From a virus (lineage: Duplodnaviria; Heunggongvirae; Uroviricota; Caudoviricetes), in the IMG/VR virus record IMGVR_UViG_2541047931_000002, positions 1 to 31,884 of that record: a stretch of 31,884 bases of DNA; one strand, 5' to 3'. Shown here piece by piece: positions 29,670 to 30,282 of the stretch (its first letter is position 1; the number at the start of each line of letters is the position of its first letter). The notes below the pieces were generated by a model. That model ran no database searches. It was not told where the DNA came from and worked only from the letters and a program-made list of their open reading frames with translations. The position numbers and the translations under genes were made by a program.

Positions 29670-29989
29670 AACAGCATACCAACCCACCCCGCCCCACAGA
29701 ATGCAGGGCAATACTTCGAGTTACCAGGCAGTGGTCAGGGGTTAAGTAGCCAGCCCGAGGCGTAAGAACATGACGGCAGGGTTCAACTTTAATAACTATG
29801 CAGCAGGTTTTTGTTCCGCTACCCCGGCGTTAAGGGGAAACAGAGGATTTCTCAGTGGGCGAAGTCAAACATCAGAATGGAAGGCATCCCGGGATCGGCA
29901 AAGAAGCAGCAATGGCGCTTTATATTGACATCAGCGCCATTGCCGGACAGGTAAGAATTATCAGAGCGGTAACTAAGCGGTATGCGCCT

Positions 29990-30190
29990 TTACTTCAGAA
30001 AGTCTCTGGTGAGTGCACCGAAGATATTGTCAACGATTTCGTCATCGAACTGCGAGGACTCATCTTCAGTTACAAGGTGACCACAATTTTTGCAGATGGC
30101 TCCCGCGAAACTGTCAGAGCCCTGCGGCTTAAAGGATGTGTCAAAGACTTCGCCACCACATTCTGGGCAAGAAAACTTGATTGTACTCAT
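29990..30190 (-). CDS. Zinc-ribbon protein (66 aa)
   Basis: Frame of ORF 29990..30196; ATG 30190 with GAGGAAA RBS; MSTIKFSCPECGGEVFDTSFKPQGSDSFAGAICKNCGHLVTEDESSQFDDEIVDNIFGALTRDFLK (CxxC-N19-CxxC); common codons. Conflicts with the plus ORF 29855..30211. Confidence 0.4.
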   Translation of the reverse strand: MSTIKFSCPECGGEVFDTSFKPQGSDSFAGAICKNCGHLVTEDESSQFDDEIVDNIFGALTRDFLK

Positions 30191-30282
30191 AACCAATTTC
30201 CTCTCGAGTAACAGACCCCTCAGAGGATACCACCTCGCCTGACGTGGTTAAAAGCAGGCAACGCTAACCACAAGGAGCCGAC

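Follow-up and report, generated by a model that had tools for sequence, protein, structure and literature searches.

Which strand carries the gene when a short interval of a prophage holds an open reading frame (ORF) on both? The question arises at positions 29855-30211 of IMGVR_UViG_2541047931_000002, a stretch of 31,884 nucleotides (nt) that was analysed at its full length (the window) and that is a lambdoid prophage of Escherichia coli. An earlier note on this DNA had described an overlap here between a zinc-ribbon ORF of 66 amino acids (aa) on the minus strand and a 118-aa ORF on the plus strand, and had treated the two as competing candidates. Both ORFs are indeed present at these positions. 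Rather than a winner, however, we find signs of selection on both frames, and we propose that 29912-30211 is a conserved dual-coding cassette, with two protein genes on opposite strands, a reading to which we give a probability of roughly 0.7. The elements on which the argument turns are the following:

29990-30190, minus strand: 66-aa zinc-ribbon gene (ECs_2282 family), from ATG 30190 to stop 29990, wholly inside plus99
30197-30205, minus strand: Shine-Dalgarno (SD) sequence of the zinc-ribbon gene, GAGAGGAAA, 6 nt before the ATG
29912-30211, plus strand: 99-aa ORF beginning at ATG 29912, termed plus99, the first ORF downstream of a PL-like promoter
29855-29911, plus strand: N-terminal extension giving the 118-aa version, from GTG 29855, with the SD GAGGA
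30201-30260, minus strand: conserved upstream cassette of the zinc-ribbon gene, recognised from invariant columns in the alignment
30229-30259, minus strand: 33-nt core of the upstream cassette, GCCTG-N7-ACCAC-N2-CAGGC-N3-GTGGT

With respect to geometry, the overlap covers 201 bases, and the 66 zinc-ribbon codons sit exactly on 66 codons of plus99, with position 2 opposite position 2 and position 1 opposite position 3. This phase is called sas13 in OLGenie and -1 by Scherer et al. (PMC7531306). The SD of the zinc-ribbon gene falls within the last codons of plus99. The zinc-ribbon product (MSTIKFSCPECGG...CKNCGH) carries its cysteines at C8, C11, C33 and C36, that is, as CxxC-N21-CxxC; the minus-strand gene itself stands as first described, but the spacing of N19 given for it does not. 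Similarly, the 118-aa plus ORF with its GTG and GAGGA is present, but the start assigned to it had to be rejected in favour of the conserved ATG at 29912. Specifically, a 1-nt deletion at 29862, found in many E. coli copies, removes the GTG extension and leaves the ATG 29912 ORF intact. The extension has no counterpart in other lineages, and substitutions in its frame among E. coli copies show no third-position excess (manual count), so that it is probably non-coding. All other lineages have an SD and an ATG at the place equivalent to 29912, and this ATG is also the start used by the Prokaryotic Genome Annotation Pipeline (PGAP) when the plus strand is called.

Across 14 divergent enterobacterial lineages and four distant phages, neither frame is broken and the codon-on-codon phase is unchanged, the exceptions being nonsense alleles of the zinc-ribbon frame within E. 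coli. Relatives of the zinc ribbon at 60-71% identity occur in prophages of Citrobacter, Klebsiella and Enterobacter, and the opposite frame is open (93-186 aa) at each of these loci. A tblastn search of phage genomes located more divergent copies, with 29-38% zinc-ribbon identity, in HK639, in the Klebsiella phages KP12 and 2b LV-2017 and in ST974-OXA48phi18.2; the HK639 copy is HK639_45, the first gene after pL and the putL RNA. Approached from the plus strand, a profile search returned 43 database relatives, down to 37% identity, and all eight of the distant plus-family members with DNA contain an intact embedded zinc-ribbon ORF whose ATG, four cysteines and stop are in the same place. The zinc-ribbon profile retrieved 66 clusters (50% identity), mostly 60-75 aa long and aligned over their full length, which share the motif F.CP.CG...GA.C..CGH..TEDD and the CPxCG...CxxCG knuckle pattern. 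These 66 clusters are known as proteins, and co-occurrence of the two ORFs was scored at loci with DNA. Scanning species-representative genomes with the zinc-ribbon profile gave two loci, both spurious, while two scans of viral contigs returned almost only E. coli copies and a scan of metagenomes two loci. A further scan, aimed at distant relatives of the zinc ribbon, yielded a coiled-coil protein, which was discarded as a false positive.

The pair is found in four genomic contexts, namely after the repressor in the PL operon, after cro in the PR operon, in the KilA/Rha region and among tail genes. In L009 and L010 (4001-4285), which are Citrobacter/Klebsiella prophages, it follows cro at the cII position of the PR operon, and in Klebsiella phage 2b LV-2017 (L187, 2986-3453) it lies among tail genes, with a plus-type ORF of 155 aa that has a long N-terminal extension. 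In all four contexts the plus-type ORF is co-oriented with the flanking operon and the zinc-ribbon ORF is antisense to it. By computation, the comparisons show that the two ORFs have stayed paired as they spread among enterobacterial temperate phages, with protein identity as low as about 30-40%.

Evidence for coding in the plus frame begins with the 25 codons of plus99 that lie outside the overlap. Parsimony on a 14-lineage tree places 61, 46 and 103 changes at their positions 1, 2 and 3, respectively (chi-square p=4e-6; this and the other p-values are indicative rather than exact, as they come from related lineages and a mosaic region). The same N-terminus is conserved as protein (M..TL.VDASA.AGQ.R.VEAV.K.Y.P), its SD and ATG are conserved as well, and the plus frame runs without interruption in every lineage. 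The chance that a plus frame would lie open over the zinc-ribbon gene, given the codon usage of the prophage itself, is 0.04-0.26 per lineage. As a control we took SfII_36, an unrelated gene that also occupies this slot and follows the upstream cassette; its antisense frame is not open. In terms of structure, AlphaFold2 predicts an alpha/beta fold for plus99 with a mean predicted local distance difference test (pLDDT) score of 88.1 and a predicted template modelling (pTM) score of 0.73 from only 22 sequences. The model has helices at residues 8-23, 33-48 and 77-95 and a beta-hairpin at 51-73, and its N-terminal helix, which lies outside the overlap, packs against the rest of the fold.

Within the overlap, the plus frame is visible in the codons of its partner. 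At overlap column 22 the plus Arg is invariant by way of CGG, CGA, CGT, AGG and AGA, with P, S or T as the zinc-ribbon residue, and at column 19 a plus Gly is kept through GGA, GGT and GGC, with S, T or A opposite. At column 21 the zinc-ribbon Ile occurs only as the rare codon ATA (or as Val GTA), which keeps a plus Tyr, and at column 9 the zinc-ribbon Pro is always CCA, which gives plus Trp. More generally, restricted or rare zinc-ribbon codons (ATA, GTA, CCA, GCG and TCT) lie exactly opposite plus Tyr, Trp or Arg, and several of these choices make sense only if the plus residue matters.

To put numbers on the two frames, substitutions were classed by their effect on the zinc ribbon (first letter) and on plus99 (second letter) as synonymous (S) or nonsynonymous (N), and single-gene nulls were simulated on the same tree with BLOSUM-weighted acceptance, frozen invariant sites and calibration to the observed counts (400 runs). 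For this phase OLGenie favours the ratio dNN/dNS (PMC7531306), whose value for the plus frame is 0.56, the bootstrap confidence interval (CI) being 0.37-0.81. When only the zinc-ribbon gene was simulated as coding, the plus ratio (omega) came to 0.90±0.17, and 0.75% of runs were as low as observed; stops appeared in the plus frame of 8.9 of 13 leaves on average, and 0 of 400 runs stayed stop-free. The co-occurrence of the two ORFs is far beyond chance.

The zinc-ribbon frame is marked by its four cysteines, none of which varies in any lineage or in the wider family. The only codon change at these sites is between TGC and TGT, and the plus residue therefore flips between Ala and Thr with a plus third base that is always A. 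At these four sites the plus third bases show 0 changes versus 16.5 expected at the rate outside the overlap (P=7e-8). Plus third positions in general change 4.12 times per site outside the overlap versus 2.0 inside it (p=5e-8), and such a reduction of synonymous variability is the signal that synplot-type methods seek. The zinc-ribbon ratio dNN/dSN is 0.29 (CI 0.19-0.40), against 1.03±0.15 under the plus-only null, for which none of 400 runs was as low and none retained a stop-free zinc-ribbon frame. Moreover, the mirror of the zinc-ribbon stop is always a rare Leu codon, TTA or CTA, and in L009, L010 and L176 the zinc-ribbon ATG is retained although the plus ORF stops short of it. A well-spaced SD precedes this ATG in at least five unrelated upstream contexts, although it is not evident in the ST974 phage.

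Considered jointly, the relative rates per class are 3.7 for SS, 1.9 for SN, 1.0 for NS and 0.6 for NN, and the ordering SS>SN>NS>NN is as predicted by dual constraint. Stops in either frame number 0, versus about 8 and about 7 expected. An independent clade, HK639 versus ST974, has the same position pattern. For both frame ratios the bootstrap CI lies below 1, and both single-gene nulls are rejected. The earlier note had held that clear conservation and translation of the plus-strand frame alone would count against its overlap; we found neither the plus frame conserved alone nor the zinc-ribbon frame conserved alone. Taken together, these computations show purifying selection on both frames, each of which has its own start codon and ribosome-binding site, and we consider it likely that the selection acts at the protein level in both.

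Existing annotation is divided along the same line. The zinc ribbon matches NCBIfam NF047912 (ECs_2282 family putative zinc-binding protein) at 57.2 bits (E=1.1e-15), above the curated cutoff of 37 bits, with residues 6-61 aligned to profile positions 1-56 of 60. The arrangement by which this family is defined, four Cys as CxxC...CxxC in about 66 aa, is found in the predicted product, and PGAP and RefSeq name the minus-strand gene as ECs_2282 family. For its part, plus99 aligns with PHROG 21318 over its full length (221.4 bits, E=1.9e-66, positions 1-99 of 99), and the distant plus-family members P0045 and P0052 match the same PHROG. PGAP calls only the zinc-ribbon gene where that gene is intact and a 99-aa plus coding sequence where the zinc-ribbon frame is broken, while the depositors of HK639, KP12, 2b LV-2017 and ST974-OXA48phi18.2 annotated the plus-type ORF only.

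Attempts to attach a function to either product by homology gave little. All Pfam matches of the zinc ribbon fall below the gathering score, the best being DUF5795 (23.4 versus 27), and none of the named zinc-ribbon families considered (Lar-like restriction alleviation, TFIIB or Elf1 ribbons, DUF5795) rises above its family threshold. A Lar-like PHROG is matched weakly (E=0.008), PADLOC likewise returned a weak match only, and Pfam gave no SieB (PF14163) match for either ORF. A role for plus99 as an N-like antiterminator was dropped, as no Arg-rich N-terminal motif was seen on manual reading and HK639 has its plus-type gene downstream of an RNA-based putL. A literature search returned no paper on this locus or mentioning ECs2282, and the paper on overlapping genes of strain EDL933 deals with other loci.

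Could one of the two frames nonetheless be a shadow of the other? The annotation of PGAP and NCBIfam implies that only the zinc-ribbon gene is real and that the plus ORF is an opening that only TTA, CTA or TCA codons would close. It is a reasonable view insofar as PGAP annotates just this gene at every locus with an intact copy, constraint is stronger on the zinc-ribbon frame than on the plus frame, and a codon-on-codon antisense phase is known to favour long shadow ORFs. Furthermore, plus99 is rich in rare Arg and Gly codons, as the earlier note had rightly remarked (AGA, GGA, CGG or CGA in 10 of 99), and these are mirror images of zinc-ribbon Ser and Pro codons. A shadow would not, however, be expected to have a third-position excess (61/46/103) and a conserved SD and ATG in the part that lies beyond the zinc-ribbon gene, nor to stay free of stops where no simulation did, nor to reach a dNN/dNS of 0.56 rather than 0.90. 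The restricted zinc-ribbon codons opposite plus Tyr, Trp and Arg, the pLDDT of 88 with a non-overlapping helix packed in, and the closed antisense frame of SfII_36 also argue against this explanation, which we regard as unlikely. The converse, in which plus99 alone is a gene and the zinc ribbon the shadow, is the view of PHROGs and of those who deposited the distant phages with a plus-type ORF alone. It draws on the confident fold of plus99, which the zinc ribbon lacks, on the frequency of zinc-ribbon nonsense alleles in E. coli, and on the co-direction of the plus ORF with each surrounding operon. Nevertheless, it is even harder to reconcile with the data, since the variation at the four invariant Cys is synonymous for the zinc ribbon with plus third bases unchanged, dNN/dSN is 0.29 rather than 1.03, the stop is always mirrored by rare Leu codons, the ATG outlasts the end of the plus ORF in three lineages with a good SD before it in unrelated contexts, and the protein has both a curated NCBIfam match and a family of 66 clusters with the classic knuckle pattern. 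We therefore hold it to be very unlikely. That neither ORF is translated, and that the conservation belongs to a structured regulatory leader (RNA or DNA) of the dicBF operon, would suit an interval that lies in the early-left operon leader beside a conserved non-coding element. In opposition to this stand the three-base substitution periodicity in both frames, the absence of stops from either, amino-acid conservation that persists at 30-40% identity while the nucleotides diverge, the lack of an Rfam match, and an upstream leader that folds no better than shuffled sequence; this last explanation is highly improbable.

Several observations do weigh against dual coding of the interval. The tree and the simulations are approximate, for lineages that are related in a region that is mosaic. 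For the zinc ribbon, AlphaFold2 yields a poor model (pLDDT 54). Constraint on the plus frame is no more than moderate (omega about 0.55), and taken alone the dSN/dSS test for it does not reach significance. The overlap polymorphisms in 27 E. coli haplotypes comprise 15 SN, 7 NN, 5 NS and 1 SS and are thus mostly synonymous for the zinc ribbon and nonsynonymous for plus99 (15 versus 5), a pattern which again indicates stronger constraint on the zinc-ribbon frame and only moderate constraint on the plus frame. Broken alleles are also frequent. The dual-coding cassette occurs in 923 of 5426 complete E. coli genomes (about 17%), O157:H7 included; 417 of these roughly 923 carriers have an exact intact 57-mer, and 516 have the exact 57-mer of the nonsense allele C30151A, which is E14* (TAA) in the zinc ribbon. 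Many O157:H7 strains combine an intact copy in one prophage with a broken copy in another. The other nonsense allele, C30061A (zinc-ribbon E44*), is synonymous for a plus Leu (CTC to CTA) and occurs naturally in L079. The zinc ribbon is therefore dispensable in at least many, possibly defective, prophages, although C30151A also turns the otherwise invariant F80 of plus99 into Leu, and those copies may for this reason be decaying in both frames. Finally, the upstream cassette holds an extended -10-like TGGTAnnnT that is invariant in 11 lineages, but phage lambda has the 33-nt core without this motif, and the assignment of a promoter to the zinc-ribbon gene is accordingly uncertain.

How the two genes of the proposed dual-coding cassette might be expressed depends on their surroundings in the prophage, for which the annotation of neighbouring genes was taken from the identical RefSeq record NZ_CP185789.1 (match from 1272207 onwards):

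28597-28812, minus strand: cro-like gene
28862-29578, plus strand: cI-like LexA/S24 repressor gene
29584-29607, plus strand: intrinsic terminator 3' of the cI-like repressor gene, stem AACCCGCA/TGCGGGTT then a T run, read from sequence
29641-29669, plus strand: PL-like, sigma-70-like promoter, TTGACT-17-TACCTT, read from sequence
29652-29667: operator palindrome GGTAACTCTTGTTACC, perfect, overlapping the PL-like promoter
30283-30501, plus strand: ydfC, the next gene of the same operon, with 92% identity to K-12 Qin from 30283 on
30825-30876, plus strand: DicF small RNA, Rfam 61 bits, above the gathering score

The operator palindrome has two imperfect copies in the divergent region between cro and the repressor gene, so that the GGTAAC-N4-GTTACC type occurs three times in the window (28841-28856, 28889-28904 and 29652-29667). 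All three are probably operators of this prophage's cI-like repressor, and the copies in the divergent region are the reason for which 29641-29669 is read as a repressor-controlled promoter of the PL type. In prophages with other repressors, the shared homology begins at about 29675-29682. The zinc-ribbon gene is thus antisense to a PL-like promoter, as had been proposed, here with a recognisable -35 and -10 and an operator at 29652-29667. Downstream of DicF, dicB and a DUF1482 gene follow on the plus strand; a sub-threshold STnc100-like match lies at 30878-31029, after DicF and just upstream of dicB. Within the upstream cassette and the leader, an Rfam search returned no match, and the 236-nt leader upstream folds no better than shuffled sequence. 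Elsewhere in the window (17323-19186 and 22028-22183), the RefSeq annotation includes iraM, two tRNA-Arg genes and the hokD toxin gene, and an IS5 transposase is inserted upstream of the Q antiterminator gene in the identical RefSeq record.

Prophage Qin of K-12 offers an instructive comparison, as its ydfA-ydfB pair likewise lies between the immunity repressor and ydfC-dicF-dicB. The earlier note had correctly placed these two genes in the Qin interval. Both are on the plus strand, however, and they have no sequence similarity to the pair described here, such that the interval is an alternative mosaic module. Alignment bears this out, in that homology of Qin to the window starts exactly at ydfC (30283) and the interval before it does not align, save for an island of 28 nt at 29813-29840 that is 96% identical to sequence just upstream of ydfA. 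This island, just before GAGGA and GTG 29855, is the sole similarity between the two modules. A 52-codon plus-strand ORF at 29770-29928 had been suggested as a counterpart of YdfA or YdfB, but its best blastp match has E=0.32 and substitutions in its frame show no third-position excess (manual count), and we rejected it as a gene.

Turning to the opposite strand, the upstream cassette at 30201-30260 (the 60 nt that precede the zinc-ribbon SD) is more conserved than the coding sequence. Its 33-nt core consists of two interleaved inverted repeats in a pseudoknot-like arrangement, both of which are kept in L177 via compensatory changes, and the core is present at 97-100% identity in 138 lambdoid phage records. 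A third stem covaries and touches the SD, as CTTGG/CCAAG in most lineages, CCTCT/AGAGG in the window and GCTGG/CCAGC in ST974; the stems were read by eye, and Rfam has no family for the element. A promoter, a 5' untranslated region structure and the template of a sas-like antisense RNA are all candidates for what this sequence may be. In lambda (J02459), a 97% identical core at 34396-34428 lies 54 nt upstream of the sieB ORF (34482-35036, plus strand), which is read against PL from its place between ral and N. Phage SfII has the entire cassette with its SD in front of the unrelated 63-aa gene SfII_36, and in L012 sieB adjoins the zinc-ribbon gene on the same strand. One copy of the upstream cassette lies at L191 1501-1563. 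Small genes on the zinc-ribbon strand just beyond the cassette were noted in L005/L008 (3062-3262, plus) and L006/L007 (3077-3520, plus), and genes on that strand also lie beyond it in L177 (4516-5519, minus) and L180 (4554-4838, minus). The arrangement suggests a variable accessory-gene slot beyond the cassette, antisense to the PL operon, whose occupant in L012 is sieB.

Comparison with lambda and P22 sieB is informative on this point. Like sieB with its antisense RNA sas, the zinc-ribbon gene has an early-left position against PL and the same 33-nt upstream core, whereas the two proteins show no homology (no PF14163 match; about 190 aa for SieB versus 66 aa). In P22, sieB belongs to the functions that the prophage expresses (PMC10883804), and the cis-antisense RNA sas controls its translation (PMC12197685); prophage expression of the zinc-ribbon gene would be by analogy. 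The strand opposite sieB yields a regulatory RNA, and the strand opposite the zinc ribbon a conserved protein frame. Genes antisense to lytic genes are, moreover, typical prophage accessory loci (PMC7067206).

From the sieB-slot position, the upstream cassette and the prophage expression of sieB, we infer that the zinc-ribbon gene may be expressed in the prophage and plus99 from PL after induction. This strand switch between the prophage and induced states is a tentative model, which we judge to have less than even odds. According to the model, plus99 would be the first gene of a repressor-controlled early-left operon of the PL type and would be made upon induction, whereas the zinc-ribbon gene would be expressed the other way from the cassette found ahead of sieB in lambda and would supply an accessory product while PL is silent, such that one protein is made in the lysogen and the other after induction. 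As the two mRNAs would be fully complementary and their promoters converge, expression of one gene should suppress that of the other. No terminator-like site was seen after the zinc-ribbon stop, and its transcript would for that reason run into PL and allow interference. Such transcription into PL could help to keep ydfC-dicF-dicB quiet, and regulation of dicBF by transcriptional interference, as put forward in the earlier note, is plausible. It is a more doubtful extension of the idea that the locus is a genuine strand-switch device, with a prophage zinc ribbon and an induction-specific 99-aa protein that exclude each other and that might share a pathway or bind.

Among published overlapping genes, the closest parallels to the pair are the antiparallel pairs of E. 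coli O157:H7 and Pseudomonas aeruginosa (PMC9927249, PMC8850804), in which a protein ORF is likewise embedded antisense and which were argued in a similar manner, from OLGenie-type selection tests and the presence of a dedicated promoter and SD; one of them, oloz0137 of EDL933, even has the same -1 (sas13) phase. Those cases are young ORFs confined to one genus inside much older 'mother' genes that are widespread without them (PMC9927249). Here, in contrast, both partners are small and co-occur at every locus with DNA, in several genera and phage types, and it is the embedded partner, a member of a recognisable zinc-ribbon family, that is under the stronger constraint. The Rz/Rz1 spanin genes of lambdoid phages also place one functional gene wholly inside another, but Rz1 is read from the same strand in the +1 frame of one transcript, whereas the present pair is on opposite strands and needs convergent transcripts.

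Overall, antisense overlapping genes are known, though not as a codon-on-codon pair that is conserved so deeply and that lies near the immunity region of temperate phages. Long antisense overlaps in bacteria and phages have mostly been disputed, young or backed by a single line of evidence. The present pair has the advantages of being small, of having both partners conserved across genera and of carrying signatures that reject both single-gene explanations, and point mutations, natural or designable, can break one of its frames yet stay silent in the other. The conflict in annotation is systematic, in that NCBIfam and PGAP place the gene on one strand, PHROGs and many depositors place it on the other, and none of the pipelines reports the two together. 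The location of the dual-coding cassette directly upstream of dicF and dicB, behind a sieB-type element, may bear on how cryptic prophages silence toxic early genes. Should the more doubtful idea of a strand-switch device prove true, no earlier case would be known in which a deeply conserved antisense dual-coding pair is coupled to the choice between lysis and lysogeny in temperate phages.

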